This document shows, piece by piece, positions 1,155-17,895 of a stretch of DNA of 64,000 nt. The position numbers and the translations under genes were made by a program. The stretch's first letter is position 1, and every line of letters begins with the position of its first letter. The notes beneath the pieces are model-generated. The model was not told where the DNA came from and ran no database searches. It saw nothing but the letters and a program-made list of their open reading frames with translations. Source of the stretch: an uncultured Candidatus Saccharibacteria bacterium (GTDB lineage Bacteria > Patescibacteriota > Saccharimonadia > Saccharimonadales > JAGQNJ01); contig CAZNZL010000001.1 of the NCBI GenBank assembly GCA_964577565.1, positions 206,566-270,565 on the forward strand, read 5' to 3'.

Positions 1155-1258
1155 TATTTTTCACCTCCGGTTAACGAGACAAACCTACGGTTTTTCTCAT
1201 CGCGCAAGGTTTTGAATGAATCAAAACTTTGGCTGCTCTTTTCCCTTGAGAAATACAT
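1154..1258 (-). CDS. Intercistronic mini-ORF A (34 aa, MYFSREKSSQSFDSFKTLRDEKNRRFVSLTGGEK); novel small protein or relay ORF
   Basis: The ATG (1258-1256) overlaps the rplC stop as TAATG. The stop TAA (1156-1154) overlaps the rplD ATG as TAATG. The span is exactly 105 nt with no internal stop. The core 1171-1247 is repeated at 14020-14096 with 3 mismatches. It is too short for the supplied ORF track. Confidence 0.5.
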   Translation of the reverse strand: MYFSREKSSQSFDSFKTLRDEKNRRFVSLTGGEK

Positions 1259-1869: not shown

Positions 1870-1911
1870 AGTTCTCCTTTAGCGACCTTTGTGCCAGCAT
1901 ACATACGATTT

Positions 1912-2020
1912 GACAAAGCCAATTGTTTGTCTGCTTCCTGGCAAATTGCTGCGTCATAAGCTCCGTTGCTCACTCATCGTATGTATATACGCTTCGCTAC
2001 TGCTACTCGCTTTTTCCTTG
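1912..2020 (-). repeat. Degenerate fourth copy of the mini-ORF/RNA element, inside the rplC 5' leader
   Basis: The gene strand carries the same ordered blocks as copies A-C: CAAGGAAAAAG (2010-2020), AGCAG-rich segment, hairpin CGUAU-AUAC-AUACG, CGAUGAG (1973-1979), GGCUUUGUC (1912-1920). There is no ATG-initiated frame. Confidence 0.3.
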
Positions 2021-2175
2021 CACTTTGCACAGGCACTAAACTCGCTTGTTAATGTTGTACATTGGTCTAGTGACAAGACATAGACATAAAAAGGCTTGGT
2101 ATATTGCAGTTTTCACCTCTGTTAAGAGCGCGAACTTACATGTATACACCAAGTAAATTACAAATATACTATTAC

Positions 2176-2205
2176 AGAGTAACAGAAAATCGCTACCTCT
2201 GTCAA
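2176..2205 (-). promoter_or_regulatory. Putative promoter of rplC (TTGACA-N18-TGtTACTCT)
   Basis: The reverse complement reads TTGACAgaggtagcgattttcTGtTACTCT, 9 nt after the stop of the upstream orphan. It would give a roughly 300-nt leader. Confidence 0.4.
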
Positions 2206-2213
2206 TATGTTGT

Positions 2214-2699
2214 TTATTCTACACTGACGGGTTGAAGGTCTACAACTTCTCTGACGAGTCTGGCGCCTTCTTCATAAATTCTTCCGGGTAAATAATAAAA
2301 ATCACTAATATCTAATATTCTCGTAAAGCCGGCTTCTTCTAATGGAAATTCAAGGTTTTCTGGTATTCGTCTGAAAGGCACATAAACCGTCAGGGTATTC
2401 TCAATACCAAGTTGCTGAAGTTGAAAAGGGGCAAAATCGGCCATGTCACCAGACCTCCAAGTGCTTTCCGGTATAAAACCAAATACCGCTAGAACACCAA
2501 GTCCGTCGCGTCGAATCGCGACTTCTTGCCGCTCTAAATCCCACAAAGAGTTTAGTTTAAAGTCTACCCATAAGCCAACTCTATCTAGAGCCAGCTTAGC
2601 TGGTGTTTGAAATAAACGCGGTGCAAGCACCGAAACACGACGCGGGTCGTCAAGATACTCTTGCATAACTCTATCTGTCCATTCTGAATCGTATTCCAT
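2214..2699 (-). CDS. Hypothetical acidic cytoplasmic protein (161 aa from MEYDSEW...)
   Basis: Long ORF in the rpsJ-rplC gap. The start at 2699 is preferred because TGaTATAAT sits 7 nt upstream. The track's upstream extension to 2768 overlaps the previous ORF. No recognisable domain. Confidence 0.6.
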   Translation of the reverse strand: MEYDSEWTDRVMQEYLDDPRRVSVLAPRLFQTPAKLALDRVGLWVDFKLNSLWDLERQEVAIRRDGLGVLAVFGFIPESTWRSGDMADFAPFQLQQLGIENTLTVYVPFRRIPENLEFPLEEAGFTRILDISDFYYLPGRIYEEGARLVREVVDLQPVSVE

Positions 2700-2706
2700 A
2701 TACGGG

Positions 2707-2715
2707 ATTATATCA
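2707..2715 (-). promoter_or_regulatory. Extended -10 promoter (TGaTATAAT), 7 nt upstream of the ATG at 2699; leaderless configuration
   Basis: Reverse complement of 2700-2715 = TGATATAATCCCGTAT, followed by ATG. Confidence 0.5.
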
Positions 2716-2727
2716 GAGAAATTATTG

Positions 2728-3063
2728 TTATATTGATACAAAAATACCGATAGGAGTCCAAAAACCAACCAGCATAGCTACTAACAATACGGCGTAACCA
2801 AGTTTACGGTCTTGTTTTATGCTCTCTTTTGAAACAAGAAACAAGCCTGCAATCAAACCTATTGGCAGGGGTAGCTGCCATGAACTGCCTTTACTAGCTT
2901 TGAGCCAGATTGATCCAACAATTACTAATATAACGAGTTTTAAGAAAAAGCCGCTATCGGTGTTGTTTGAAGGTTTTTGTTTTCTTTTTGTCACTAGTTT
3001 TATTATAGCAAAAATACAAATTAAGAAAGTATGTTTGCGCTTGTCTCTTAACTTAGCTAACAA
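2728..3063 (-). CDS. Hypothetical integral membrane protein (111 aa, about 4 hydrophobic segments)
   Basis: Hydrophobic stretches FLICIFAIIKLV, LVILVIVGSIWL, LPIGLIAGLFLV and AVLLVAMLVGFWTPIGIFVSI. It follows the previous ORF after 8 nt. Confidence 0.5.
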   Translation of the reverse strand: MLAKLRDKRKHTFLICIFAIIKLVTKRKQKPSNNTDSGFFLKLVILVIVGSIWLKASKGSSWQLPLPIGLIAGLFLVSKESIKQDRKLGYAVLLVAMLVGFWTPIGIFVSI

Positions 3064-3071
3064 ATTTTAAA

Positions 3072-3314
3072 TTAGCTATCGGTAGTTTGTCCTGCTGATT
3101 GTGCATCGATGGCACAGGGTTCTTTTAGTATATCCTTACCGATTTGTATGCTGCCACCCATTAGCATGCATCCCCCCAAGGCCACAAATAGTAGACCTTC
3201 ACCATCAACTTTAGAATGTATCTCTGCGACTAAGCCGCCAAGGGATAGTATGCCGCCACTAATACCAAGCTTCATGCCCGGTTCTTTTATGAATTCTCCT
3301 ACGCGTTGTAGCAT
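3072..3314 (-). CDS. Hypothetical small Gly-rich membrane protein (80 aa, two Gly-zipper-like segments)
   Basis: Segments LGISGGILSLGGLVAEI and LLFVALGGCMLMGGSIQIG. It starts 12 nt after the rpsJ stop, with AAAGG upstream. Confidence 0.5.
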   Translation of the reverse strand: MLQRVGEFIKEPGMKLGISGGILSLGGLVAEIHSKVDGEGLLFVALGGCMLMGGSIQIGKDILKEPCAIDAQSAGQTTDS

Positions 3315-3326
3315 GGAAGCGCCTTT

Positions 3327-3662
3327 CTACATCTTAATTTCGGCGTCGCAGCCAGCTGGTAGGCTCAGGTTCATGAGGCTATCAATTGTCTTTGGCGTTG
3401 GTTCAAGAACGTCAATAATGCGCTTATGAATGCGCATTTCAAACTGTTCACGGCCTTTTTTAAAGACGTGCGGGCTTTTTACTACCGTGTATGTTGTTCG
3501 TTGGGTTGGCAGTGGAATGGGCCCTGCTATTGTGGCGCCAGTACGCAAAGCTGTATCTACAATTTGCTTCGCAGACTGGTCAATTACTTTATGATCATAT
3601 GCTTTAAGGCGAATCCGGATTCGTTGTTTACCGGCTTCCTTACTAGCGGATGTTGCACTCAT
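3327..3662 (-). CDS. rpsJ: 30S ribosomal protein S10
   Basis: [24 protein letters not shown]...[23 protein letters not shown] is canonical S10. Confidence 0.97.
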
Positions 3663-3725
3663 AAAATTCCTTTCTCTTAGAGCACTCTAACATGTACAAC
3701 CGTTAGAAGTTTTTATTAATACCTT

Positions 3726-3754
3726 ATTGTACAACAAATCGTATATAAATCCAA
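3726..3754 (-). promoter_or_regulatory. Putative rpsJ promoter (TTGGAT-N17-TACAAT)
   Basis: Reverse complement = TTGGATttatatacgatttgttgTACAAT, 12 nt after the stop of the upstream orphan. Confidence 0.45.
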
Positions 3755-3765
3755 GAGTTTACTAC

Positions 3766-4185
3766 CTATGTTGTGCTACTGCGGGATGGGGGTGACAAAC
3801 GAGGAATCGTAGGGTCATCTTTGAGTACTCTTAGTAAGTTGCCGAAGTTATAATGAGGTGCGTCATAACCACTATAAGTTGTACCTAAAATTCGACAGCC
3901 AGCTCTCCTTTCTAAGTCGGACGGGTACTCAACCTTATCGGTTGAAGCTACCTCAAGCTCTCGATATTCATTAATATAAACAGCATTGTCAGTATAACCA
4001 CCAAAGTGCTCATCTAAAAAAGCTCTAAATATGCCGTTAAGTGCAAAAAGCGACCAGCGTAATTGCACGGTCACAATGCATAAAAGATCGCTCGATCGTT
4101 CAATATGCTCAGCTAGTTCGTCAGAAAAAGCCGGTAATCCTGAAGTTGGCAGCTCTAAGGCTGTTACTCTTTCTAATGTTGTCAT
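3766..4185 (-). CDS. Hypothetical acidic protein (139 aa)
   Basis: ORF between the tuf terminator and the rpsJ promoter. No recognisable motif. Confidence 0.55.
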   Translation of the reverse strand: MTTLERVTALELPTSGLPAFSDELAEHIERSSDLLCIVTVQLRWSLFALNGIFRAFLDEHFGGYTDNAVYINEYRELEVASTDKVEYPSDLERRAGCRILGTTYSGYDAPHYNFGNLLRVLKDDPTIPRLSPPSRSSTT

Positions 4186-4337
4186 GGCATGTACCCCGAT
4201 TATTCGTTATAGCGTACGCCCATACTGCTCATGTTAAAAGACGTTAAATTTACACCATCATACTTTTCGATATAGTAGCCAAAAAAGAGCCAAGATTTCT
4301 CCTGACTCTTTTTTCGAATATAAACAAATATGGGTGC

Positions 4338-4379
4338 CAAAAGCAAAATCCCAGAAGTCATTGACTTGCTTCTGGGATT
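4338..4379 (-). terminator. Rho-independent terminator after tuf
   Basis: Gene-strand RNA AAUCCCAGAAG-(11 nt loop)-CUUCUGGGAUU followed by UUUGCUUUUGG. An 11-bp perfect stem, 20 nt after the tuf stop. Confidence 0.75.
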
Positions 4380-4399
4380 TACGGTGCGTTTATCTAAGA

Positions 4400-5581
4400 T
4401 TATTTTGTAATCTTTGTTACAACACCGGCACCAACAGTTCGGCCACCTTCACGGATAGCAAAACGTTGACCGTTATCCATAGCAATTGGCTGGATTAGTT
4501 TAACCTTAAAGGTTACAGTATCGCCAGGCATGACCATTTCTTTGTCTGCCGGAAGCTCAACCTCACCTGTTACGTCCGTAGTACGGAAGTAGAACTGAGG
4601 CTTATAACCTTTAAAGAATGGCGTGTGTCGTCCACCCTCTTCTTTGGTTAGGACATAAACTTCTGCATCAAATTCGGTGTGAGGAGTGATTGTACCTGGT
4701 TTAGCCAAAACTTGACCGCGCTCAATGTCATCACGCTCAACACCACGAAGCAAGATACCAACATTGTCACCAGCTTGACCTTGATCAAGGTTTTTCTTGA
4801 ACATTTCAACGCCGGTTACAACACTCTTCTTCGTGTCACGAATACCAACAATCTCAACTTCGTCGTTAACTTTAACGATACCTTGTTCAATACGGCCAGT
4901 TGCAACAGTACCACGACCTTTAATTGAGAAGACGTCTTCGATTGCCATCATGAATGGCTTGTCTAGATCACGCTTAGGCTCGGGGATGAAATCATCCATA
5001 GCTTTTACAAGCTCCATAATAGCGTTCTCATCTTCTTCTGAACCTTCAAGAGCTTTAGTAGCAGAACCTTTGATGATTGGCGCGTCTTCGTCGAAGCCGT
5101 TCTTAGCAAGAAGTTCACGTACATCCATTTCAACTAGCTCAACGAGTTCAGGATCAGCAAGGTCCATCTTGTTGAGGAATACAACGATCTTTGGTACGTT
5201 TACCTGGCGAGCAAGCAAAACGTGCTCACGAGTCTGGGGCATAGGACCGTCAGCAGCTGATACAACCAAAATAGCACCATCAACCTGTGCAGCGCCGGTA
5301 ATCATGTTCTTGATGTAGTCGGCGTGACCAGGCATGTCAACGTGTGCGTAGTGACGCTTTTCACTCTCGTATTCTTGGTGAGAAACGGCAATCGTAATAC
5401 CACGCTGCTTTTCTTCTGGTGCGTTGTCGATTTGATCATAGTTAATCGGCTTGTTAATGTCACTTGGCAATTTCTTAGCCAAAGTGTGGGTAATAGCCGC
5501 GGTTAGTGTTGTCTTACCGTGGTCAACGTGGCCCATGGTACCAACGTTCACATGCGGTTTGCTTCTGTCGAAGTCAGCCAT
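4400..5581 (-). CDS. tuf: Elongation factor Tu
   Basis: 393 aa with [17 protein letters not shown] and NKMD GTPase motifs. AAGGAG SD. Confidence 0.99.
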
Positions 5582-5736
5582 TAGTGTTAGCTCCTTTTAT
5601 TTAACTTAATCTTTAACGTGAGTAAATACATACTCACACGAGTACCGTTACAACTGTACTACATCTGTTAATAAGTAGCAATATATACTGCCAATTTAAA
5701 AACTCATGCAGTTGTAACGGCACGAGTTACCAAGTC

Positions 5737-5764
5737 ATTCTATCTGATAACAGCGTATTTGTAA
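5737..5764 (-). promoter_or_regulatory. Putative tuf promoter (TTACAA-N16-TAGAAT)
   Basis: Reverse complement = TTACAAatacgctgttatcagaTAGAAT, beginning 2 nt after the stop of the upstream orphan. Confidence 0.4.
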
Positions 5765-5766
5765 AG

Positions 5767-6036
5767 CTATAAGCTTACATGAGTTTCGTACGTTTCTATA
5801 TCACGTAAGGGGCAAATAGTTTTAGTCCCTAAATTAACACCAAGAATACTTGTTCTGCCGAAAAGTGTTCGTTGTGTATCAATCGCACCGGGGCATTCTG
5901 GATCACATACTATAGACTCTGGATCAGCGGCATCTTTGGATACGGGTACGATTCGCATTCCATCTGACATTAAATCTACAGAAACACAACTTCCTGCCTT
6001 TGTTGGACATATATTGAAATTTGTAGAGCTTTCCAT
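5767..6036 (-). CDS. Hypothetical small Cys-Pro motif protein (89 aa), paralog-like to the ORF at 9444-9677
   Basis: Contains ICPTKAG, VCDPECPGAID and ICPLRD. By eye it shares the blocks xCPxxxG, [IV]D[IL]M, [KR][LI]VP[MV]xK[ED] and [LI]VxxxxCP[AG] with the 77-aa ORF. Confidence 0.5.
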   Translation of the reverse strand: MESSTNFNICPTKAGSCVSVDLMSDGMRIVPVSKDAADPESIVCDPECPGAIDTQRTLFGRTSILGVNLGTKTICPLRDIETYETHVSL

Positions 6037-6059
6037 AACAACATCGTAAATTATTTAAT

Positions 6060-6512
6060 TCATTTGTCAATTACTTCAGTAATAATGTCTGGAAATTTCT
6101 CCATATCAACATCAATATTACTAAAAATCGCACTACTCGCAGCCCAAACAACTCTGTCACTCAACCGCTCCCAGCCTCTAAATTTATCTATTGGGTGAAT
6201 AGAATCATGAAACCGGGCGCTACTAAAAGCCGTTAGGGGGTCTTGCTGAATCAATGCTGTCTCGGCTAAATTTGTAGCCATTCGAAGAGTCAGTGCTAGT
6301 CTTTGGCCTGGAATATATGACCGAAACAAATGTTCTCGCGAGGCTACATAGCTAAGTCTACGTATTAGATCTTGCGCATAGTCAGCGTGACTCATGGGTA
6401 GTCGATAGCCTAAATTACGTATATCGAAATAGAGTTCGTCGCTAATGTCTTCAGGATGGCCCATGGATAGGTTACTTGTGGCTCTGAGTTCTGCCTCGTG
6501 TCGGTTTGTCAT
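6060..6512 (-). CDS. Hypothetical protein (150 aa)
   Basis: A 453-nt ORF starting 11 nt after the fusA stop. No SD and no recognisable domain. Confidence 0.55.
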   Translation of the reverse strand: MTNRHEAELRATSNLSMGHPEDISDELYFDIRNLGYRLPMSHADYAQDLIRRLSYVASREHLFRSYIPGQRLALTLRMATNLAETALIQQDPLTAFSSARFHDSIHPIDKFRGWERLSDRVVWAASSAIFSNIDVDMEKFPDIITEVIDK

Positions 6513-6523
6513 GGGTAGATTGC

Positions 6524-8611
6524 TTACTTAGCGTTTTGAGCAACAATCGCTTCCGCAACATGACTTGGCACGTCTGCGTAGTGGTCAAGTTCCATACTAG
6601 AGCTGGCGCGACCTTGCGTCATAGACCGCAAGTTGGTGGTGTAACCAAACATTTCACCAAGCGGCACAAAGGCGGTAATTTCTTTGATACCAGCCTGCAA
6701 ATCTTCCATTGACTCAATGCGCCCCCGCTTAGAGTTAAGATCACCTATGACATCACCCATAAACTCTTCAGGTGTTACCACAACAACTTTCATAACGGGC
6801 TCAAGAAGCACAGGGTTGGCTTTGCGTACACCTTCTTGTAATGCCATAGAACCGGCAATCTTAAAGGCCATTTCGCTAGAGTCAACATCGTGATAGCTAC
6901 CATCATAAAGTTCAGCTTTAATGTCAACGACTGGATAGCCAGCTAATACACCGTTAGACATAGCCTCTTCAATACCAGCACGCACAGGGTTGATGTACTC
7001 TGCTGGAACCACGCCACCCTTTATAGAGTTAATGAACTCAAAACCTTTACCGGCCTCATTTTGGCTTAGTCGCAACCATACATGACCATATTGACCACGG
7101 CCACCGCTTTGGCGAACGAACTTGCCTTCTACCTCAACGCCATCTTTTCGAATGGTTTCACGGTAGGCTACCTGAGGCTGACCAATGTTTGCATCAACAC
7201 TAAATTCACGCTTCATGCGGTCAACCAAAATCTCAAGGTGAAGTTCACCCATACCACGAATAATAGTCTGACCAGTTTCGTCATCAACATGAACCCTAAA
7301 AGTAGGATCTTCTTCTGCCAGGCGTTGCAGCGCAAGACTCATCTTTTCTTGGTCACTCTTAGTCTTTGGCTCAATAGCAATACTAACAGGCGGCTCTGGG
7401 AAGGTTATGCTCTCGAGCACGATCGGATTGTTTGCATCACACAAGGTGTTACCGGTAGTAGTTCCTTTTAGACCAACAATAGCAGCAATGTCACCGGCAC
7501 CAATTTCAGTGATATCTTCACGCTTGTCTGCTTGCATGCGAACCAAGCGACCGATGCGCTCTTTTTCACCAGTTGAGCTGTTGTATACATATGAACCGGC
7601 CTGAAGTTTACCCGAATACACCCGGAAATAAGCCAATTTACCAACGAACGGATCGGTTGTAATTTTAAAAGCCAGGCCTGCAAGCGGCTCAGACTCTGAA
7701 GTTTTACGTTCAACACTCTCGCCGGTTTTTGGATGCGTACCCCAAACAGAATCTATATCTTTTGGAGACGGCAAAATGTCAACTACAAGATCGAGCACTT
7801 TTTCTACGATCACACCGCGGCCATCACCACCAGTAACTGGGTAGAAATTGCCGCTAATAGTTGCGGTTCGTATTGCTTGGGTAATTTCTTCTTCAGTTAA
7901 GCCGTCTTCACCCACCTCAAAGTACTTCTCTAGCATCGCTTCGTCTTCTGCAACGGCATTTTCAATCAAAAGGCTACGGTATTTCTTGGCTTTATCAAGC
8001 ATATCCTCTGGAATTTCGCCTTCAACTAGCTCTTTGTCGGTATAGTCTTTGTAGGTATATGCCTTCATGCTAATTAAATCAACCACACCGTTTATACTTT
8101 GTTCAAAGCCAATCGGCAAATGAATCGGGAATGATCGCTTACTTAAGCGATTATGAATCGTGTCAAGTGACTTATAAAAATCGCCGCCTGTTTGGTTAAT
8201 TTTGTTAATAAAGCAAATGCGTGGCACGCTGTATTTATCAGCTTGTCGCCAAACGGTTTCAGATTGCGATTCAACACCCATCTTACCGTCAAAAACAACC
8301 ACAGCACCGTCAAGAACACGAAGCGAGCGCTCTACCTCAACAGTAAAGTCAATGTGCCCCGGTGTGTCGATAATGTTTACTTGGTGATCTTTCCAGAAGC
8401 AGGTTACGGCAGCAGATACAATCGTAATACCGCGCTCTCGTTCTTGCGCCATCCAGTCGGTTGTCGACTCACCTTCATGAGTTGTACCAATTTTGTGTTT
8501 GATACCAGTACGATACAAGATACCTTCTGTTGTGGTAGTCTTACCCGCGTCAATGTGGGCAATGATACCAATGTTTCTAATTTTATCTAATGCGTATTTT
8601 TTTGCTGCCAT
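6524..8611 (-). CDS. fusA: Elongation factor G
   Basis: 695 aa with [17 protein letters not shown] and NKINQ motifs, plus EF-G domains IV/V. AGGAGA SD. Confidence 0.99.
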
Positions 8612-8622
8612 TCATTTCTCCT

Positions 8623-8964
8623 TTAATATGCTGATGTCCTTTTGAGTACGAGATTCGAAACAGTGTTCATTGCGGGACATGCAACAAGTGCATCTTCTAT
8701 TGTTTCTGAGCCATCTCTCCCAGGACATTGATCGTATATCCGAGAGACTTCCTCTAAGCTTACGCTTTCATGAACCACTAAAGTATCAAGTCCCCTACGA
8801 TTTGTCTCCACAAAGCACATCACTAGATCTCCTAGCACTCTTTCCTTACCGCCTCTTAAGATTCCTAAAAGAGAAGGTTGCCTTACCGTTAAGGATCTTT
8901 CTAGTGTGTCCTCATTCCCCATGCGGCACCCATGACAGCGCTCAACTTCAATTCTACTTGCCAT
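8623..8964 (-). CDS. Hypothetical Cys-containing protein (113 aa; CHGC, QCPG, ACP)
   Basis: The ORF fills the whole rpsG-fusA gap. It starts 3 nt after the rpsG stop, and its stop is followed immediately by the fusA SD. Its Arg codon usage differs from neighbouring genes. Confidence 0.55.
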   Translation of the reverse strand: MASRIEVERCHGCRMGNEDTLERSLTVRQPSLLGILRGGKERVLGDLVMCFVETNRRGLDTLVVHESVSLEEVSRIYDQCPGRDGSETIEDALVACPAMNTVSNLVLKRTSAY

Positions 8965-8967
8965 TTT

Positions 8968-9444
8968 TTACCTAGCAAAGTGAGCGAAGGCGCGGTTGGC
9001 TTCTGCCATTTTGTGCGTGTCTTCACGTTTTTTAACTGCCGTACCGGTATTGTTGTACGCATCCATTAACTCTTGAGCGATGCGGTCTTCCATACTCATG
9101 CCTTTACGAGCGCGAGCAGCTTGCACAAACCACATAATGGTAAGGTGTTGTTGGCGCTGACCTTTAACCTCAAACGGAATCTGATAGTTAGCACCACCTA
9201 CACGTCGTGAACGAGTCTCTAAGTGCGGCTGGACGTTCTTCATTGCTTGTTCAAATACTTCGAGCGGATTTTTAACTTTTAGTTTGTCGGCAGCTTTTTG
9301 CATACCACCGTACACAAGGCGTTCGGCAATTTGCTTTTTACCGTTTAGCATCACGCGATTAATAACTTTTTGAACCTGAACGCTGTTATACAAACGATCT
9401 GGCGCAACTTCTCGAACTAAACTCTTTGTCTTTTTTCTCGGCAT
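8968..9444 (-). CDS. rpsG: 30S ribosomal protein S7
   Basis: 158 aa. The N- and C-terminal sequences are typical S7. GGAGGTGA SD. Confidence 0.97.
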   Translation of the reverse strand: MPRKKTKSLVREVAPDRLYNSVQVQKVINRVMLNGKKQIAERLVYGGMQKAADKLKVKNPLEVFEQAMKNVQPHLETRSRRVGGANYQIPFEVKGQRQQHLTIMWFVQAARARKGMSMEDRIAQELMDAYNNTGTAVKKREDTHKMAEANRAFAHFAR

Positions 9445-9677
9445 TAAACTTCACCTCCAACCCTAAGAACCTCACCTAAATCTACTGCTGTTGACTCTTC
9501 TCCAAGCCCTAAATCATGCCAAAGTTGAGCCGGACAATCAGCTTCTTCTACTAAAGATGCCTTGCCTACTTCTTTAAACATGGGTACAAGCTTTTTTTCA
9601 CAGTAGTCAGGACCCATGATGTCTATTGCGATCCCTTGAATAGGACAAACCGAATTCTTACCACATTCAAAGCCCAT
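9444..9677 (-). CDS. Hypothetical small acidic Cys-Pro motif protein (77 aa)
   Basis: It fills the rpsL-rpsG spacer exactly. The ATG is 2 nt after the rpsL stop, and the stop overlaps the rpsG ATG (TAATG). The rpsG SD is encoded by its last codons (GGEV). Motifs VCPIQG and DCPAQ. Confidence 0.5.
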   Translation of the reverse strand: MGFECGKNSVCPIQGIAIDIMGPDYCEKKLVPMFKEVGKASLVEEADCPAQLWHDLGLGEESTAVDLGEVLRVGGEV

Positions 9678-9679
9678 AC

Positions 9680-10093
9680 TTATTTACCTGCCTTTTTCGT
9701 ACCGTATTTAGAGCGGCCTTGCTTGCGGTTTTCTACACCCTGAAGGTCGAGCGCACCACGAACAATGTGGTAGCGTACACCCGGTAGGTCCTTTACGCGG
9801 CCACCGCGAATCATAACAACCGCGTGCTCTTGCAGGTTGTGGCCTTCACCACCAATGTAAGCCCATACTTCATGACCGTTTTGCAAACGAACACGAGCTA
9901 CTTTTCGAAGCGCTGAGTTTGGCTTTTTTGGTGTTTTGGTGGTTACCTTTACACACACACCGCGCTTAAATGGTGATGGCTTTTCGTAGTTGTTGTTTTT
10001 AAGATTGTTAACCACGCGATGAAGCGCAGGTGATTTTGATTTACTATGCACCTTCTTGCGTGGCTTTCTAACTAGTTGATTAATTGTTGGCAC
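9680..10093 (-). CDS. rpsL: 30S ribosomal protein S12 (GTG start)
   Basis: [12 protein letters not shown]...[15 protein letters not shown]...[21 protein letters not shown] is canonical S12. The start codon reads GTG, with AAGGAG 6 nt upstream. Confidence 0.97.
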
Positions 10094-10187
10094 TTATACT
10101 CCTTTAAAGTTTGTGATCTGCTGCAGCAGTGCGAATGCCTGCGCACTGGCTCGAACCACTTAGTTTAACCTGGTTATTTTAACACCT

Positions 10188-13100
10188 TTAGGCGTCAACT
10201 TCAACCTCTTGATCTTCTTTCTTCTTGGCATAGGCATTATATCCTGTACCTACCGGAATCATACGGCCCAAGATAACATTTTCTTTCAAACCATACAGAT
10301 GATCGACCTTGCCACTGGTTGCCGCGCTAATGAGTACACGGGTTGTGTCCTGAAAGCTCGCAGCACTCAAGAACGATTCGGTTGAAAGCGAAGCTTTAGT
10401 AATACCAAGTAGTAATTGGTTGTACTGAATCTGCTCTTTGCCAACTTTAGCCAATTTTTCGTTTTCTTCTTGGACGGCAATTTTACTGACAATATCGCCG
10501 GTAATGAAGTCGCTGTCACCGGCGTCTTCAATTTGTACGCGAGAAAACATTTGTCGCACAATAATTTCAAGGTGCTTATCGGCAATATTTTGGCCCTGGC
10601 TGGCAAAAATCTTCAAGATTTCGTTCATGATGTAGCGCTGTGTAGCCTCTACACCTTGCAGACGCATTAACTCGTGAAGGTTGATTGAACCGTTTGTCAG
10701 GCGTTGTCCGGCAACAACCTCATCGCCATCTTTAACCTGCAACTGCTTGTAACCAGGGATCTCATAGCGCACGACACTTTGCTTGCTTGGCGTAATGAAG
10801 ATTGATCTCTTGGTAACCTTAACTTTGCCGGCCACCGGTGCAATGAGCGGGTTCGCGCCTTCTTCTTCAGACGCCATAACATCGCCAATGTTAACATTTG
10901 AACCGTTTTTGATCTCTACCTTGCGTCCGTTCAGCGGGTATTCAACTGACGCGTCATCTTTAGCGGTAATTTCAACGATATAGTGGTCGCCTTCTTCCCA
11001 GGTTTTTACGACACCAGAAATGTCGGCTAGGAACGCCTGGCCTTTAGGTGTACGTACCTCAAACAGCTCTTCAACTCGAGGTAAACCGGTCGTAATGTCT
11101 TCACCAGCTACACCACCCGAGTGGAAGGTTCTGAGTGTCAACTGCGTACCTGGTTCGCCAATACTCTGAGCGGCAATAACTCCAACGGGGTGGTATTTTG
11201 CAACGATATCACCGGTGGCAGGGTCAAGGCCGTAGCTTTCGCGACTTATACCGCGCACACTGCTACAACTTAAGACACTCATAATGCGCACTGTATCGAT
11301 GTTTTTATCGCTATCGATAGCAAGGGCAACTTCTGGGCTAATCAGCTCGCCAGCTTTAACATGACCCTTAACAGCTTCTGCTGTAAAGCGGCCTTCAAGC
11401 CGAGAAGCAAAGGTAACGCCAATTTCTTCAGAGTCGGCACGGTAAATTGCAAAGCCTGGGTCTTCACACTCCTCGTCAGTTGTGAAGACGTCTTGGCTAA
11501 CGTCTACCAAGCGACGCGTCAAGTAACCTGAGTCCGCGGTCTTAAGTGCCGTGTCAATCATACCCTTACGGGCGCCGCGTGTTGCGGTAAAGTATTCAAG
11601 CGGACTAAAACCATACTTATAGTTTGATTTCACCGGCAATTCAATAGTGCGTCCTGTTGCATCTGCAACTGGGCCCAACATGCCTACGGCTGTTTTTACC
11701 TGACCAATATTACCACGAGCACCAGAGACAACAGCGGTAGACATAGCGCTGTCTTCGTTAGCAAATTGCTCGCTTAAGGTTTTTTGCACTTCACTGTCAA
11801 CATCTTGCCATGTTTCAATGGTTAAACGGTATCGCTCTTCATCGGTAATGAAACCCTGTTCGTACTGGTCGCTGATGTTGGCAACGCGTTCTTCGCCTCG
11901 TTCTAATATTGCTGCCAGTTCGGGCAGATCGGTAAAGTCATCCATACCCAAGCTCAAGCCTGACTGGGTCGCATACTTAAAACCAATGTCTTTTAAGTCA
12001 TCGGCAATGTACGCGGTTTTATCTTGGCCATAGCGCTGATAAACCTTTGACATGACGTTTGACAGCTTCTTTTTTGTCATGGTTTCGTCTTGGAACGGAA
12101 AATCTTCAGGGAAGATCTCATTAAACAGCAACCTACCCAGCGTTGTATTGCGCATTTCGCCGCGGAACGGTACCATCACACGGCTTTGCAGCTGGATTTT
12201 ACCAGCATCATACGCCATGAGTGCTTCGGCTAGATTTACAAACGGCTGAGCCTCATTTGAAGCACCCATGCGTTCGTAGGTTAAGTAGTAGCAGCCTAGT
12301 ACTATATCCTGGTCAATATGAAGAATTGGTGATCCGTCAGCTGGTTTTAATAGGTTCTTGTTTGAGGCCATGATCTCTCGCGCTTCTGTTTGTGCTGCGT
12401 CTGATAGCGGTAAATGTACGGCCATTTGGTCGCCGTCAAAGTCAGCGTTAAAACCTTTACATACCAGTGGGTGAAGCTGAATAGCCTTACCTTCAATCAA
12501 AACAGGCTGAAAAGCCTGAACACTCAAGCGGTGTAATGATGGCGCTCGGTTTAGAAGGACATATTTACCTTTAATGACTTCATCTAGGGCGTCCCAAACG
12601 GCAGTTTCACCCGCCTCGATCATTCTAGTTGCTGACCTAATATTATGAGCAAATTCATTAGAAATGAGGTGGCCAATCACAAATGGCTTAAATAGCTCCA
12701 AGGCCATCATTTTTGGCAGACCACACTGGTTAATTTTAAGTTCAGGACCAGCAACGATCACCGAACGACCAGAGTAGTCTACGCGCTTACCAAGTAAGTT
12801 TTGACGAAAACGACCTTGCTTACCCTTAAGCATATCGCTGAGTGATTTTAGACGTCGGCGCTGGCCAGTAGCTGCCACTGCGCGCCCACTACGAGCATTG
12901 CCGTTATCAATTAAAGCATCAACAGCTTCTTGAAGCATGCGTTGCTCATTACGCCGAATAACCTCAGGGGCATTCAATTCAATGAGTTTCTTCAAGCGAT
13001 TATTACGGTTAATAACACGACGGTAAAGATCGTTTAGGTCTGAGGTTGCAAAACGGCCACCCGTTAATTGAACCATCGGTCGGAGATCAGGAGGAATTAC

Positions 13101-13997
13101 CGGCAAAACCGTTAAGCACATAGAATTAGGCTTAATATCTGCTTGCTCCATACTTTCAAGCAAGCGCAAGCGCTTCATTAGTTTCTTTTTGCGCTGACCT
13201 TTCGCTTCTTCAGCTTCTGCGGTGAGGTCTTTAATTAGCTTCTTCAGATCAATTTGATCAAGTAGGTCTTTTAAGGCTGTACCACCCATACCGACCTCGA
13301 TGATATCTGCTAATTCATCTGGTAAATTGTGGTAGTCACTTTCGCTAATAAGGTTAAGCTTAACCAATGAATCAACCTGAGCCTTAAAGGTTTCAAAGCT
13401 TTGCGTAATCTCTTCGAGCTCTTTGGTACGCATTTCTGCCAAAGCCTTAACGTTGGCATCGTCTTTTGCAGCCTCTGCTTCATAGCGAGCTTTGATTGCT
13501 TCTTGTGCGGCAGCAAATTCTGCCTCTTTGTCTGCTAGTAGCTGGTCTCGCTTAGCTTCATCAACAGACTTAATGATATAGCTCGCAAAGTAGGCGACCC
13601 GTTCTAGGTTTTTTACCGTTAAGCCTAGGAGTAACCCTACGGCTGATGGTGTACCACGAAGAAACCAAATATGCGCTACGGGGCTTGCTAAACTAATATG
13701 ACCCATGCGCTCACGTCGAACAATTGATTTGGTGACGATTTCGCCATTTTTATCAACTGCCGCCTCACGAGAACGAACACCTTTATATTTTGCGTCATGG
13801 GGGTTTATATCTTTGACGGGGCCAAAGATGCGCTCACAGAATAGACCATCACGCTCTGGTTTTTGTGTTCGATAGTTAATAGTCTCTGGTTTTGTGACCT
13901 CGCCATGTGACCAATCTAAAATGTCATCTGCACTTGCTACCGCAAGGCGAACAGCATCAAAGTCTGAGATGGTGGGGCCGCTAGAGTAACGTCGCAT
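10188..13997 (-). CDS. rpoC: DNA-directed RNA polymerase subunit beta'
   Basis: 1269 aa with the [12 protein letters not shown] catalytic motif. Confidence 0.99.
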
Positions 13998-14107
13998 TAG
14001 TTTACCTCGCTTTCGCTCATTAATGAGACAAGCCTACGGTTTTTCTCATCGCGCAAGGTTTTGAATGAATCAAAACTCTGGCTGCTCTTTTCCCTTTTGA
14101 AAACCAT
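13997..14107 (-). CDS. Intercistronic mini-ORF B (36 aa, MVFKREKSSQSFDSFKTLRDEKNRRLVSLMSESEVN); paralog of mini-ORF A
   Basis: The ATG (14107-14105) overlaps the rpoB stop as TAATG. The stop (13999-13997) overlaps the rpoC ATG as TAATG. The span is 111 nt, in frame. Of the 3 substitutions against copy A in the 77-nt core, 2 are synonymous (CAA/CAG, TCG/TCA) and 1 is F->L. Confidence 0.5.
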   Translation of the reverse strand: MVFKREKSSQSFDSFKTLRDEKNRRLVSLMSESEVN

Positions 14108-17100
14108 TATTTTGCCTCCTCTTCGTCTTCATCGTTAGTGTCGTCATCGTCATCAGCCGATGCAGCCGCTACGCCCGCAGGCATGTGGTCGTCAAGTTCA
14201 ATTAAATCAAACTCGTCGATACCTTCTGCCGCAGTAACGTCAATTTCTGACACTTCTGGTGCCGGTACATCAACTTCAGATTGGTTGACTGCTTCGTCTT
14301 TAATGTTTTCAGCTAGAATTGCTTCGGCATCAACGGTGGTTTCTGAAGCGATCAGATCCACCTTAAGCCCAAGGCCCTGGAGCTCTTTAACGAGCACGTT
14401 AAAGCTTTCGGGTACCTTAGGACCAACAATCTCAGTCCCTTTAATGATTGACTCATATGCCTTCGAACGGCCATATACATCGTCAGACTTAATTGTCAGC
14501 ATTTCTTGCAGCGTATTTGCTGCACCATATGCCTCGAGGGCCCATACTTCCATCTCACCAAAGCGCTGACCGCCATTTTGAGCTTTACCACCAAGTGGTT
14601 GCTGCGTCACCATAGTGTAGGGGCCAGTTGAACGAGCATGAATCTTATCAACGATCATGTGGTTGAGCTTGATCATATACATGCTGCCAACCGTAGTTCT
14701 CTCAGAAAACGGCTCGCCGGTACGACCATCAAACAGCTGCTGTTTACCATCTTCTGGAAAGCCAGCTTCTTTTAGTAAGTCTTGAATCTTGCTAATTGGG
14801 ACACCGTTGAATGATGGCGAGGCAACATGTATACCAAGGGCACGAGCCGCCATACCAAGGTGGGTTTCAAACAACTGCCCAATATTCATACGCGACGGCA
14901 CACCTAGCGGGTTCAGCAAAATATCAACAGGAGTGCCATCTTCCATGAACGGCATGTCTTCAACAGGCAATATACGTGCAATCACACCCTTGTTACCGTG
15001 TCGACCACCTAATTTGTCACCAACTGCAATTTTACGCATTTGGGCCACAAAGACCTGAATTTGCATAATCACGCCAGCTTTTAACTCATGGCCGTTTTCG
15101 CGGCTAAAGACCTTTACGCCCACAACCTTGCCGTGCTTGCCGTTACTCATACGCTGAGAGGTATCGCGAACATCTTTAGCTTTTTCGCCAAAAATGGCTC
15201 GCAGTAAGCGCTCTTCGCTCGAAAGCTCTTGCTCGCCTTTAGGGGTAATCTTACCTACTAAGATATCGCCAGGATGCACATCAGCGCCAATACGTACAAT
15301 ACCGTCTTCATCAAGATGACGCAGAGCTTCTTCGGACACGTTTGGAATGTCTCGTGTAACTATTTCAGGGCCGAGCTTAGTCTCGCGAACCTCAGTCATA
15401 TAATCAACGATATGAATCGATGTTAACGTATCGTCCTCAACTAAGCGGCGTGAAACAATAATAGCGTCCTCAAAGTTGTAGCCCTTCCATGGCATGAACG
15501 CAGCTATAACATCTTTACCAAGTGCTAGTTCGCCGCCATCAATGGACATCCCTTCAATAAGAATATCGCCTGTCTTAACTTTATCGCCACTATTTACGAC
15601 AACCCTTTGGTTTATACATGAGCCTTCATTGCTGCGCACAAAGTGTTGCGGATAGTAATGCACCTTTCCAGCATTCTTGTACTTCACAATAACTTCAGAA
15701 GCGGTTGCTGATAAAACTTCACCGTCTTCTTCAGCCTGAACGAGCTGGCCGGTGTTTCGTGCCACTACCGATTCTAAGCCGGTTCCAACAATAGGCCGCG
15801 ATGGACTGATTAGAGGCACGGCCTGGCGTTGCTGGTTACTACCCATTAAGCTTCGGTACACGTAGTTCTTTTCAATAAACGGAATTAAACCAGCACTTGA
15901 ACCAATGATTTGCCGCTTTGAAGCATCAATATGAGTAATATCATCGGCGTCTACCTCACCTGAAATCAAACGATTTCGTGCCGAAACACGCTCGTTTACA
16001 AAGTAGCGTTCATCTGTCAATTCCTCGCTACCGCTTGCAATAACAGCTTGCTCTTCTTCAGCCGCATCGAGATACTCAACTTTTTTGGTAACCTTCGCTT
16101 TTACTGGCCAAGATTTTTGATTTTTAACCGAGGCCAGTTTTTTAACGTCAGCTGCTGTAATGGTTGAACCGGCCTTAACCAGTACCTTACCATTTTCGTC
16201 TTCAAGATTAACACGAGCTATGTGGCCTACAGCCTCTTTAGGCGTAACGGCATTTTGCACCTTAAGGTAGGGGGTTTCAATGAAACCATATTCATTAATT
16301 CGTGCATACATACCCAGGTTTAAAACCAAGCCAATATTAGCGCCTTCTGGCGTCTCTACGGCACATATGCGTCCGTAGTGCGTGGCATGGGCATCGCGAA
16401 CTTCAAAACCGGCACGCTCGCGACTTAACCCGCCAGGACCCATTGAACTTAGACGTCTTTTATGCGCCAATTCGCTCAAGGGGTTAATCTGATCCATAAA
16501 CTGAGAAAGCTGTGAGCTGGCAAAAAACTCACGTACTGCTGCCACAACAGGCCGCGCGTTAATGAGTTGTCCAGGTGTTACGGTCTCGATCTCGCTCATA
16601 CTCATTCTGTCTTTTGTGTTTCGCTCCATACGAAGTAAACCGATACGGAATTGGCGTTGTACGAGCTCACCAACCAACTTAACACGTCGATTAGCAAGGC
16701 TATCAATGTCGTCGGCTGGCTCTTGTGTATTATTGAGGCGAATAACCTCAGCCACAATAGCAACAAGATCGTCAATGCGCATTACACGGTTTTCAGCAGT
16801 GTTTGGCACATCAAGATTAAGGCGCTTATTGATTTTGTAACGCCCAACACGGCTAAAATCAAAGCGCTTAAAGTTATAGAACATGTTTTCAAGAAGTGAG
16901 CGTGCGTTATCAACGGTAGCTAAATCGCCCGGACGTAAGCGACGATAAACCTCAATTAGTGCCTCGTTGGTACCTTTAGCCGGATCTTTATCGAGGGTTG
17001 CTGTAATAAAGCTATCTTTTCCTTGATCTACGTGTGCAAAGCTTTCTTTAATCCTAGCCTCTGTGAGGCCTAACGCGCGTAGTAAGGTAGTAACAGGAAT

Positions 17101-17658: not shown

Positions 17659-17860
17659 AACTTCTAGCCACTCTCCTTAGACGTGCCCTCTAAAAAAGAC
17701 TGGTCTTGTTGATTTTCAACACCCAAACACCATGAAAATCGCCAAAAGATCAGTTTACCGGGCTTAATTATTGATAACGCGCACGAAGATCCTAAGCTAT
17801 ATTGGGCTACTACCGAAGGGTACCAATAGCAAAGCCCGCTTACCCTACTTCTTGAACTAT

Positions 17861-17889
17861 AGTATGGGGCCCTATTACAATAATGTCAA
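17861..17889 (-). promoter_or_regulatory. Putative rpoB promoter (TTGACA-N17-CATACT)
   Basis: Reverse complement = TTGACAttattgtaatagggcccCATACT, starting 6 nt after the clpP stop. It implies a roughly 200-nt leader. Confidence 0.4.
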
Positions 17890-17895
17890 GCTTCT

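Follow-up and report, generated by a model that had tools for sequence, protein, structure and literature searches.

The window analyzed here is a 64,000-nt stretch of DNA from an uncultured Candidatus Saccharibacteria bacterium. Read from this window, the gene order around the str operon is rpsL / o77 / rpsG / o113 / fusA / o150 / o89 / tuf, with small ORFs lying on the same strand as the conserved genes and filling the junctions between them (Table 1). No terminator-like sites were found on the coding strand between the cluster genes, which is in favor of their co-expression. Two of the small ORFs, o77 and o89, had been singled out in the preliminary description for their Cys-Pro (CP) motifs; we found both where it had placed them, on the minus strand, with the motifs that it had listed, and both encode acidic proteins, as it had stated (pI 4.3 for o77 and 4.5 for o89). 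The GC content at third codon positions (GC3) is 0.26-0.37 in the junction ORFs, below that of the core genes (0.40). Further along the cluster, o139, o80, o111 and o184 are Cys-poor; thus, the inserts at the cluster junctions are heterogeneous.

Table 1. Genes and sites of the analyzed cluster, in positions of the window.
Feature	Position	Strand	Description
rpsL (S12)	9680-10093	minus	upstream neighbor of o77; in L001 this gene matches PF00164
o77	9444-9677	minus	77 aa, rpsL-rpsG junction
rpsG Shine-Dalgarno GGAGGTGA	9451-9458	minus	within the last o77 codons; read from sequence
rpsG (S7)	8968-9444	minus	downstream neighbor of o77; PF00177
o113	8623-8964	minus	113 aa, rpsG-fusA junction; RCHGC ... 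QCPGRDG ... ACP
fusA (EF-G)	6524-8611	minus	conserved anchor
o150	6060-6512	minus	150-aa orphan, fusA-tuf junction; zero Cys; outside the Cys-rich class
o89	5767-6036	minus	89 aa, fusA-tuf junction
tuf (EF-Tu)	4400-5581	minus	downstream anchor of the fusA-tuf junction
o139	3766-4185	minus	tuf-rpsJ junction ORF, Cys-poor
rpsJ	3327-3662	minus	conserved gene, not a junction ORF
o80	3072-3314	minus	rpsJ-rplC junction ORF, Cys-poor
o111	2728-3063	minus	rpsJ-rplC junction; membrane protein kept in relatives; Cys-poor
o184	2214-2768	minus	rpsJ-rplC junction ORF, Cys-poor

The 234-nt junction between rpsL and rpsG is filled exactly by o77: its ATG lies 2 nt past the rpsL stop codon, and its TAA overlaps the rpsG ATG (TAATG). 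An AGG-type ribosome-binding site for o77 sits in the 3' end of rpsL, and since the Shine-Dalgarno sequence of rpsG falls inside the end of o77, the C-terminus of the small protein (...GGEV) is imposed. The in-frame codon score of o77 is 0.36, equal to the median of the known genes, and it is the highest of the six frames. Reading of the boundaries of the insert disclosed no flanking repeats. The protein contains Cys at positions 5, 11, 26 and 48, with CP at 11 and 48. Taken by itself, o77 looks like a real small-protein gene that is completely orphan. A word-indexed search of 5.8 billion proteins returned no homolog besides o77 itself; a full HMMER search of 1.84 billion representatives added one spurious tandem-repeat protein (P0004); tblastn against 80 related genomes gave zero matches, and nothing was found in the JGI metagenomes. 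The preliminary description had taken a lack of homologs with the CP-x37-CP spacing as counting against its proposal, and for o77 none appeared in any of these four collections. The Cys-rich rpsL-rpsG ORFs of three relatives (L012, L013 and L025) have no similarity to o77, nor was any other ORF in the relatives detectably similar to it. A loose pattern, CP-x30-45-CP, applied to same-strand junction ORFs picked out, besides o77, a 115-aa tuf-rpsJ ORF of L039 and one ORF that is probably spurious.

Cys is rare in the window, with a background of 0.449% in its 34 long genes, and against this background the Cys richness of o77, o89 and o113 is clearly non-random: the probability of at least 4 Cys in 77 aa is 4e-4 (o77), that of at least 5 in 89 aa is 6e-5 (o89) and that of at least 5 in 113 aa is 2e-4 (o113). 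In o89 the Cys residues occupy positions 10, 17, 44, 48 and 75, with CP at 10, 48 and 75 (motifs ICP ... CDPECPGAID ... ICPLRD). Two CP motifs in each protein had been proposed; this holds for o77, whereas o89 has three. The spacing of 37 residues between the CP motifs in o77 and 38 in o89 was confirmed. The o113 motifs YDQCPGR and CHGC, pointed out earlier, are present, and there is an ACP in addition. No obvious N-terminal hydrophobic leader was seen in o77 or o89 on reading by eye. In o113 the coding frame outscores the other five; the o89 codon score is low (0.09), yet it is above that of 99.9% of off-frame windows, and no obvious Shine-Dalgarno sequence lies upstream of o89. A 110-aa protein, P0005, was considered as a strain variant of o89 and rejected: the gene caller reads through a TAG, and the DNA is identical.

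A word-indexed search with o89 returned only o89 itself. Another species, however, carries a 71-aa ORF at the same fusA-tuf junction (L050:3261-3476) that is the reciprocal best hit of o89, with a Smith-Waterman score of 59 compared to 25 +/- 5 and a phmmer E-value of 0.012. The two proteins keep four Cys (C10, C44, C48 and C75 of o89) while the remainder diverges, and in the L050 homolog the CP motifs are 62 residues apart. The alignment of this pair found nothing in the JGI metagenomes, and neither did phage tblastn searches with o77 and o89.

Using fusA (EF-G) as an anchor, we fetched 80 related loci and compared the junctions of the rpoC-rpsL-rpsG-fusA-tuf-rpsJ-rplC series among Saccharimonadales. 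Their length varies greatly, and small ORFs on the same strand, most of them orphan, fill them. The spacing between rpsL and rpsG is 30 nt or less in 48 of 70 relatives, and all eight insert-free loci that were read through have TAATG or TAA-N3-ATG. Among inserts of 150-700 nt, at least 70% of the length is covered by a single same-strand ORF in 11 of 14 cases at rpsL-rpsG and in 42 of 46 at rpsG-fusA. The rpsL-rpsG inserts of the relatives are mutually unrelated and, like o77, end in the rpsG Shine-Dalgarno sequence, GGAG-N-ATG. The distribution of junction ORFs over the EF-G tree is patchy, and similar ORFs are found at different junctions: for example, the rpsG-fusA ORF of L012 matches the fusA-tuf ORF of L022 (BLASTP, 5e-7), and the tuf-rpsJ ORF of L039 is significantly similar to the rpsG-fusA ORF of L056. 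One insert, in L014, is flanked by an 18-nt direct repeat; no integrase was recognized in the junction region examined, and the larger inserts are ordinary housekeeping genes. Other occupants of these junctions include a 23S rRNA intervening-sequence protein, DnaJ, NUDIX and membrane proteins; the first of these lies at rpsG-fusA in L027, and blastp places it in one group with the ORFs found at this junction in L032 and L042. An intein or insert seemed to lie in the fusA of relatives; this was rejected, since tblastn cross-hits to tuf accounted for the long matches.

To describe the Cys-rich members together, we defined a class (alignment A1) of same-strand ORFs of 55-150 aa that lie between conserved genes of the series, with at least four Cys, an N-terminal C-x2-7-C usually followed by P, and a C-terminal C-x-G ... 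C often followed by P; it should be noted that part of the Cys pattern in A1 reflects how the sequences were selected. About one quarter of junction ORFs belong to this class, which is acidic and has the consensus C-x2-C-P ... C-x-G ... C-P. The Cys counts in 209 same-strand junction ORFs are bimodal, with 11 ORFs at three Cys and 36 at four, compared to 13 expected at four under a Poisson distribution; this peak argues that many of the inserts are selected proteins. Within the class, CxxC was found in 24 of 53 ORFs (7.6 +/- 2.5 in shuffles), CxxCP in 11 of 53 (0.44 in shuffles) and CxG in 33 of 53 (14.5 in shuffles), and proline follows Cys in 11.9% of cases compared to 4.7% expected. In a leave-one-out profile comparison, 28 of 45 members exceeded the 95th percentile of decoys, with a held-out median of 4.2 bits.

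The three ORFs of the window all agree with the class in length, strand and position, and differ in their Cys arrangement, which is full in o113 (CHGC ... CPG ... CP), CP-x5-C ... CPG ... CP in o89, and C-x5-CP ... C ... CP, without CxG, in o77. Against a profile of other species o113 scored 11.4 bits, which was exceeded by 2 of 500 shuffles and by 4 of 741 decoys, all four being longer-start versions of class members; it also matches the rpsG-fusA ORF of L048 (Smith-Waterman 52). Thus, the ORF that had been flagged tentatively in the preliminary description is the best-supported member. The o89 score is borderline at 2.6 bits, with 53 of 741 decoys at or above it, and o77, at -0.5 bits, does not rise above decoys (340 of 741 at or above). 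For o113 we regard class membership as good, for o89 as plausible and for o77 as unproven. The class as a whole is held together loosely: hhalign among six subgroups gave probabilities below 5% throughout, an iterative HMM search stalled after one round, and the 48-member profile was too weak against 5.8e9 proteins, where it retrieved only P0003 (E = 0.07). Since hhalign links no subgroups and o77 is at the decoy level, the class could be a mixture of several Cys4 proteins that are not related to each other. No hit for any of the 48 ORFs came from Pfam, NCBIfam, PHROGs, PADLOC or PDB sequences (Pfam at E <= 0.01 for the class members and at E <= 1 for o77, o89 and o113), and a full-text literature search found no description of these junction ORFs. 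The earlier suggestion of small Cys/CP proteins at several junctions is borne out in spirit, since such proteins occur at different junctions both here and in the relatives (32 of about 80 species), whereas the family tie between o77 and o89 that accompanied it is not established.

This tie was the central proposal of the preliminary description: o77 and o89 would be true paralogs that arose by duplication within the operon, with a two-Cys (CP ... CP) site serving in redox chemistry or in a metal-bridged dimer. We consider it a possible explanation, albeit one that we lean against. The pairwise comparison is in its favor. BLASTP reproduces the first alignment with 11 of 48 identities and E = 0.004, a value that applies to a single comparison only. 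The Smith-Waterman score of 45 (shuffles, 23.9 +/- 4.3) was reached by 21 of 20,000 plain shuffles, by 120 of 20,000 when CP was kept as a unit and by 94 of 20,000 when all Cys/CP positions were fixed. This score falls within the top 0.72% when pairs of Cys-rich junction ORFs from different genomes serve as the null, and is the highest among 13 within-genome pairs; the two proteins are reciprocal best matches among the 199 ORFs of the window, and o89 is the best non-self phmmer match of o77 among 7505 ORFs, and the CP spacings agree. However, that phmmer match has E = 0.48, a tblastn search of the whole window with o77 at E <= 5 did not report o89, and the uncorrected p of 0.001-0.007 becomes about 0.015-0.17 after correction, a range set by the choice of null and by how many pairs are counted: about 0.015-0.02 for the three Cys-rich pairs only, and, for all 28 junction-ORF pairs, about 0.03 under the plain shuffle and about 0.13-0.17 under the CP-preserving nulls. 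The HHalign comparison that had been proposed as a check (o89 with its L050 homolog versus o77) returned a probability of 0.7%. Under the first alignment o77 shares only two of the four Cys conserved between o89 and L050, while the 48-sequence alignment places C48 of o77 in the last Cys column with C75 of o89 rather than with its C48. The single-sequence AlphaFold models, which are unreliable (pLDDT 46.8 and 47.1), predict different secondary structures, with o77 helical and o89 beta. At the sequence level o113 has no similarity to o77 or o89 (z of 0.1 and 0.6). Moreover, two ORFs from one genome do not in general resemble each other more than two from different genomes (Mann-Whitney p = 0.17), and a search for a DNA-level source or duplication of the inserts in the window and 83 loci yielded only chance matches of 14-19 nt. 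The pairwise score is thus marginally in favor of paralogy, and the profiles and structure predictions do not support it; a direct kinship between o77 and o89 is no more than suggested, and a motif-level resemblance between two junction ORFs is not proof of paralogy.

The orphan status of o77 could also mean that it is a spacer or proto-gene, functionless DNA kept open by translational coupling to rpsG, with the motif match to o89 due to chance. The unrelated inserts of the relatives, all ending in the rpsG Shine-Dalgarno sequence, would agree with this, as would the low GC3, the low AlphaFold confidence and the failure of the class profile to recognize o77; we nevertheless regard this as unlikely, given codon usage equal to that of core genes, a Cys content improbable against the genome background, two more Cys-rich ORFs in the same operon and the four-Cys peak in junction ORFs of relatives. 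It appears similarly improbable that the junction ORFs are hitch-hiking mobile cassettes, small genes without promoters that pass from one stop/start junction of highly expressed operons to another, and that o77, o89 and o113 were acquired independently: the patchy spread, the homologs at differing junctions in different species, the intervening-sequence protein gene of L027, the direct repeat in L014 and the GC3 unlike that of core genes point in this direction, but no flanking repeats were seen around o77, no integrase was recognized in the part of the junction region examined, searches of phages and PHROGs gave no match, the inserts share no DNA similarity, and the larger inserts are housekeeping genes. 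The ferredoxin analogy of the preliminary description, in which o77 and o89 would be Fe-S proteins with CP marking the distal Cys of a [4Fe-4S] or [3Fe-4S] cluster, rests on CP-x-x-[AG]-I contexts (CPIQGIAI, CPGAID), the four or five available Cys and the enrichment of CP in the class. It fails on motif and on Pfam, and we consider it very unlikely: the CxxCxxC triad is absent from both proteins, neither Fer4 nor any other Pfam/NCBIfam model matches at E <= 1, no PDB sequence matches, and known single-cluster ferredoxins space their Cys differently. Finally, the 234 nt could be a cis-regulatory RNA of the S7 autoregulatory leader type, the ORF being incidental; their position would correspond to that of the S7 operator of E. 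coli, the rpsL-rpsG intercistronic site. This possibility is largely refuted, because no Rfam match was found at E <= 1 in positions 1-18000, the folding energy is the same as that of shuffles (z = 0.22), the coding signal is strong in one frame and the spacer is missing in most relatives.

The explanation that we favor, to which as a whole we give about an even chance, is that o77 is a gene confined to one lineage and inserted in the normally overlapping stop/start of rpsL and rpsG, that the junctions are variable slots, and that the four-Cys ORFs form a class with a metal site, made together with S12, S7, EF-G and EF-Tu. According to this model, o77 would be transcribed with the str operon and coupled in translation at both ends. 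Together with o113 and o89 it makes up a trio of acidic, Cys-rich, apparently cytoplasmic mini-proteins in an otherwise very Cys-poor genome, a local instance of a feature seen more widely in Saccharimonadales, in which the junctions are variable slots for fast-evolving, mostly orphan small genes. The four Cys may form one tetrahedral metal site, with Zn2+ the likeliest metal and an iron center possible; such a site would act as a clamp between the N-terminal and C-terminal segments of an otherwise poorly conserved domain of 70-140 aa. The products would be small cytoplasmic Cys4 metal-binding proteins, with zinc the probable metal, and their synthesis would keep pace with that of S12, S7, EF-G and EF-Tu. 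The preliminary description had proposed a function linked to translation; only the gene position suggests one, and unrelated genes occupy the same junctions, too. A far more speculative extension, which we think has a slim chance of being correct, is that the Cys4 mini-proteins are fast-diversifying binders of the translation apparatus, stoichiometric with S12/S7/EF-G/EF-Tu and driven by an arms race. They might then serve as decoys or shields against antibiotics and toxins that the actinobacterial hosts of Saccharibacteria direct at the ribosome or at elongation factors, or against phage factors; a hypervariable linker would be displayed on the zinc clamp, and the str/S10 junctions would be an "expression dock" for the gain, swap and loss of such genes.

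Several known systems resemble these ORFs in part. Cys4 zinc proteins with zinc-ribbon or rubredoxin-like knuckles (L31, L32, L33, L36, S14, DksA/TraR) are likewise small and cytoplasmic, have exactly four Cys in two pairs from distant segments, the first often CxxC, and in some cases have translation genes as neighbors. The junction class has no sequence match to any of these families, however; its second pair is C-x-G-x(5-25)-C and not CxxC, it has CxxCP instead of CPxCG, and its linker is 1-73 residues long. The two CxxC pairs of a rubredoxin or zinc ribbon are not found here: o113 has one CxxC (CHGC) plus C80...C96, the first pair of o77 is C-x5-C, and o89 has a mid-protein C-x3-C (CDPEC). 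Single-cluster ferredoxins (Fer4; CxxCxxC...CP) share the Cys-Pro ligand context, small size and acidity, but in the junction ORFs the triad is missing and the Pfam Fer4 models are unmatched. Among accessory genes in the str operon of other bacteria, ybxF (L7Ae-like) of Bacillus subtilis is presumably located between rpoC and rpsL, and it would similarly be a small non-core gene co-transcribed amid the rpoBC-str cluster. YbxF is conserved and of known RNA-binding fold, whereas the junction ORFs are orphan, Cys-rich and different from species to species. ORFans and proto-genes also lack homologs, are short, have atypical GC3 and occupy slots that differ between close relatives; in contrast to them, the junction ORFs are found, with exact translational coupling, in the cluster of strongest synteny and highest expression, and they share a recurrent four-Cys architecture across species. 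The 23S rRNA intervening-sequence protein (PF05635), which occupies the rpsG-fusA slot in L027, is a four-helix-bundle protein of an unrelated family that lacks the Cys motif, and it is absent from the window; its presence at that junction shows that such slots can take in small genes that are self-contained.

In a bacterial genome the rpoBC-str-S10 cluster usually ranks with the regions of highest synteny and strongest expression. Within a single order of bacteria that are ultra-small and depend on hosts, the junctions of this cluster are variable slots for orphan genes, about a quarter of which are four-Cys. For annotation, this means that such junction ORFs should not be dismissed as spurious. 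They offer a natural system for the birth and docking of small genes in essential operons with translational coupling left undisturbed. If they are real metal binders made together with S12, S7, EF-G and EF-Tu, these proteins would be abundant, unrecognized components of Saccharibacteria cells and, if so, candidate modulators of translation specific to the lineage, or candidate factors in conflict with hosts or phages.

The rpoB-rpoC-str-S10 gene cluster of a Saccharibacteria (Saccharimonadales) genome occupies the initial 18 kb of the window on the minus strand; the taxonomic placement rests on the labels of the closest EF-G loci in GTDB, described below. An identical copy of the locus occurs in two SRA assemblies. 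Eight ORFs, each designated by the letter o and a number, lie at junctions between the conserved genes, in the same orientation as these.

Conserved genes and junction ORFs of the ribosomal gene cluster
Feature	Coordinates	Strand	Position
rpoB	14107-17658	-	
rpoC	10188-13997	-	
rpsL	9680-10093	-	
o77	9444-9677	-	between rpsL and rpsG
rpsG	8968-9444	-	
o113	8623-8964	-	between rpsG and fusA
fusA	6524-8611	-	
o150	6060-6512	-	fusA-tuf junction
o89	5767-6036	-	fusA-tuf junction, between o150 and tuf
tuf	4400-5581	-	
o139	3766-4185	-	between tuf and rpsJ
rpsJ	3327-3662	-	
o80	3072-3314	-	after rpsJ
o111	2728-3063	-	after rpsJ
o184	2214-2768	-	after rpsJ, then rplC, rplD, rplW

The 77-aa ORF o77 is coupled to its neighbors: it starts 2 nt past the rpsL stop, its TAA overlaps the rpsG ATG (TAATG), and the ribosome-binding site of rpsG, GGAGGTGA, lies within its final codons. 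Using a codon-usage log-odds model trained on the 34 long genes of the window, we obtained an in-frame score of 0.36 for o77, equal to the median for 80-codon windows of real genes; its five other frames all scored negative. The scores of o89 (0.09) and o113 (0.05) are low compared to real genes, yet above 99.9% of off-frame windows. No Rfam match was found in the o77 region, which shows no folding advantage over shuffled sequence (z 0.22), and no terminator-like sites were found between the genes on the coding strand. In relatives, represented by the 80 GTDB loci nearest in EF-G (70-89% amino-acid identity, almost all of them labelled Saccharibacteria or Saccharimonadales), inserts of 150-700 nt consist of one same-strand ORF in 11 of 14 cases at rpsL-rpsG and 42 of 46 at rpsG-fusA. 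Because of the codon score, the lack of an RNA element or terminator and the one-ORF inserts of relatives, we regard o77 as probably a real, translationally coupled gene.

Several other features of the region should be mentioned. The tuf leader, 185 nt between the o89 stop codon and the start of tuf, contains a perfect inverted repeat of 12 nt, CCGTTACAACTG ... CAGTTGTAACGG (5645-5656 and 5709-5720, minus strand), whose arms enclose a 52-nt loop; it may represent an RNA hairpin or a site for protein binding. Promoter-like hexamer pairs (10/12 matches) are located on the minus strand directly upstream of o89 (6043-6070) and of tuf (5737-5765); across the region there are 21 such pairs versus 14.3 +/- 4.4 in shuffles, a total not above the shuffles. 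The Cys-poor or Cys-free ORFs o184, o80, o139 and o150 show coding-like codon usage and are complete orphans; o139 and o184 are weakly similar (z 2.2). Coding-like codon usage was also seen outside the ribosomal cluster in two small ORFs of 112 and 142 aa (42705-43043, plus strand, and 35718-36146, minus strand), neither of which matches Pfam.

The junction lengths differ widely across the 80 related loci. The rpoC-rpsL-rpsG-fusA-tuf-rpsJ-rplC junctions range from 2 nt to over 7 kb between species (L003-L082; equivalent to 1-14000 of the window). The rpsL-rpsG junction is at most 30 nt long in 48 of 70 relatives and 150-332 nt in 14; where there is no insert, it reads TAATG or TAA-N3-ATG in 8 of 8 loci read through. 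Median lengths are 324 nt for rpsG-fusA, 717 nt for fusA-tuf, 532 nt for tuf-rpsJ and 1180 nt for rpsJ-rplC, and rplC-rplD is constant at about 2 nt. The inserts are same-strand ORFs, most of them species-specific and unrelated to those of other species; when 1471 junction ORFs were compared all against all by BLASTP, only 69 tiny clusters formed. Larger inserts hold ordinary genes (DnaJ-domain, NUDIX, shikimate-pathway). At one locus the rpsG-fusA slot contains a gene for a 23S rRNA intervening-sequence protein (L027:7564-7944, plus strand; PF05635, E 1.3e-37), with a weaker bAvd-like match as well; blastp clusters this gene, the one covered by the Pfam scan, with the rpsG-fusA ORFs of L032 and L042. 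Since the junctions of relatives vary and are filled by mostly unrelated ORFs, the cluster in Saccharimonadales is a string of conserved genes with variable slots between them, and o77 is among the rarer occupants of the rpsL-rpsG slot.

Both o77 and o89 are orphans. Searches of 5.8 billion proteins returned only the queries themselves, their 90%-identity clusters comprise this organism alone, and no relatives of either were found in JGI metagenomes or phage genomes. A full HMMER search with o77 of 1.84 billion cluster representatives recovered o77 and one artefact, the 843-aa tandem-repeat protein P0004 (unit ~54 aa); its E value of 9e-12 is misleading, as it arises from the summing of seven weak matches to CPAQLWHDLGLGEES, and we rejected it as a homolog. 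An apparent 110-aa strain variant of o89 (L083:2540-2872, contig from SRR7082966) is a gene-caller artefact: the public gene call reads through two TAG codons in DNA identical to the window. There is no resemblance between o77 and other rpsL-rpsG occupants. None of the eight junction ORFs has a Pfam family match apart from a weak 8xMP match of o111 (E 0.017), and o111 alone matched in tblastn against the 80 related loci (1e-9 to 1e-27, 23 loci, always at rpsJ-rplC). This small hydrophobic membrane protein is conserved in relatives, unlike the other junction ORFs of the window.

A four-cysteine architecture recurs in the relatives. We counted Cys in 209 non-nested same-strand junction ORFs of 55-150 aa, and the distribution was bimodal: 81 ORFs had none, 41 one, 23 two, 11 three, 36 four, 13 five and 4 six, the 36 four-Cys ORFs comparing with a Poisson expectation of 13. 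The 53 ORFs with at least four Cys are acidic (median pI 5.05) and enriched, compared to shuffles, in CxxC (24 versus 7.6 +/- 2.5), CxxCP (11 versus 0.44) and CxG (33 versus 14.5); among all 209, Pro follows Cys in 11.9% of cases versus 4.7% expected. The alignment of 48 such ORFs has the consensus C-x2-C-P ... D ... C-x-G ... C-P, in which the Cys columns partly reflect how the sequences were selected and the P, G and D positions do not. With a leave-one-out profile, 28 of 45 members exceeded the 95th percentile set by 741 decoy ORFs with at least four Cys. Significant similarity links members that share a junction (L034/L036, L030/L062) and members at different ones: the rpsG-fusA ORF of L012 and the fusA-tuf ORF of L022 (BLASTP 5e-7), and the tuf-rpsJ ORF of L039 and the rpsG-fusA ORF of L056. 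The class is present in 32 species, is commonest at rpsG-fusA (22/71) and is patchily distributed across the EF-G tree. The 48 ORFs had no matches in Pfam, NCBIfam, PHROGs, PADLOC or PDB sequences.

The Cys content of the window ORFs is likewise non-random. The genome is unusually Cys-poor (0.449% in the 34 long genes; zero in EF-Tu and most ribosomal proteins of the window, including S7, L3, L4 and L23), so that a content of 4-5 Cys is improbable for o77, o89 and o113 individually (4e-4, 6e-5 and 2e-4, respectively), and the other 46 kb contain no coding-like small Cys-rich ORF. By its sequence, o113 is a clear class member: it scored 11.4 bits against the profile of other species' members, a value reached by 2 of 500 shuffles and exceeded solely by decoys that are longer-start versions of class members, and its Smith-Waterman score with the rpsG-fusA ORF of L048 is 52. 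The class-profile score of o89 is borderline (2.6 bits); its one homolog found, a divergent 71-aa ORF that another species likewise carries at fusA-tuf (L050:3261-3476; Smith-Waterman 59 versus 25 +/- 5, reciprocal phmmer E about 0.01-0.03), shares four Cys and the CDPEC-G--D block with it. The profile does not recognize o77 (-0.5 bits).

The preliminary description took o77 and o89 for two-CP-motif paralogs. Its coordinates, motifs and spacings are correct, except that o89 has three CP motifs (10, 48 and 75), and both proteins are acidic as described (pI 4.3 and 4.5). Its by-eye alignment is the same as that of BLASTP (11/48 identities, E 0.004 for one comparison). The Smith-Waterman score of 45 (shuffles 23.9 +/- 4.3) was reached by 21 of 20000 shuffles, by 120 of 20000 with CP kept as a unit and by 94 of 20000 with all Cys/CP positions fixed; the stricter shuffles still rarely reach it, therefore the non-Cys matches (IDIM/VDLM, LVPMFKE/IVPVSKD) contribute. 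The fairest null is given by between-genome pairs of Cys-rich junction ORFs, against which the score ranks within the top 0.72%. Among the 199 window ORFs of 50-150 aa, each of the two has the other as its best hit, and o89 is the best non-self phmmer match of o77 among 7505 ORFs, at E 0.48. Correction for all pairs that might have caught attention (28 among junction ORFs, or 3 among Cys-rich ones) gives p of about 0.015-0.03 under the plain-shuffle and class nulls, and about 0.13-0.17 under the stricter CP-preserving nulls with 28 pairs. The pairwise score is marginal. The pair was not recovered by window-wide tblastn at E <= 5 or by a profile comparison, in which hhalign gave a probability of 0.7%. 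The four Cys of o77 occupy the four Cys columns of the class alignment, which pairs its C48 with C75 of o89, whereas the by-eye and BLASTP alignments pair it with C48; these registers conflict and neither is proven. No sequence-level similarity was found between o113 and either protein. The similarity of o77 and o89 is suggestive rather than established, and their paralogy is possible but unproven, and somewhat doubtful in our judgment.

The inserts may have arisen by vertical hyper-divergence, by de novo birth, or by relocation or horizontal gain. Cross-junction homologs, patchiness, lower GC3 (0.26-0.37 in junction ORFs versus 0.40 in core genes) and one flanking direct repeat hint at mobility; neither a recognizable recombinase in the junction region nor a donor sequence turned up. 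The repeat, 18 nt long (GAAGGAGAGCAAGTAATG), lies on both sides of a 211-nt rpsL-rpsG insert (L014:2661-2900), duplicates the rpsL 3' end and could be a target-site duplication or the result of microhomology-mediated insertion. Such repeats were absent from the other inserts inspected, and none was seen on reading the o77 insert boundaries.

Since ORFs with exactly four Cys are so sharply favored, we infer a single tetrahedral Cys4 metal site, most likely for zinc, that would staple a small, otherwise fast-diverging domain. Such a site is supported by the CxxC-type knuckle at the N-terminus and the pair at the C-terminus, by the apparently cytoplasmic location and by the absence of further conserved residues. 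The ferredoxin-type Fe-S site hinted at in the preliminary description is unlikely, as the proteins lack CxxCxxC and do not match Fer4. AlphaFold single-sequence models of o77 and o89 were uninformative (pLDDT about 47). The shared operon position, from which a translation-linked function had been proposed, implies that production keeps pace with that of S12, S7, EF-G and EF-Tu; by itself it does not imply a role in translation, because the same slots are used by unrelated genes.

A full-text literature search found no description of four-Cys mini-proteins or orphans in these slots. It should be noted that the context of o77 and o89 is both better supported and of greater interest than their paralogy: the slots of the Saccharimonadales ribosomal gene cluster harbor a lineage-restricted, uncharacterized class of four-Cys mini-proteins, alongside other orphans in the same variable slots, and the window holds three Cys-rich examples.
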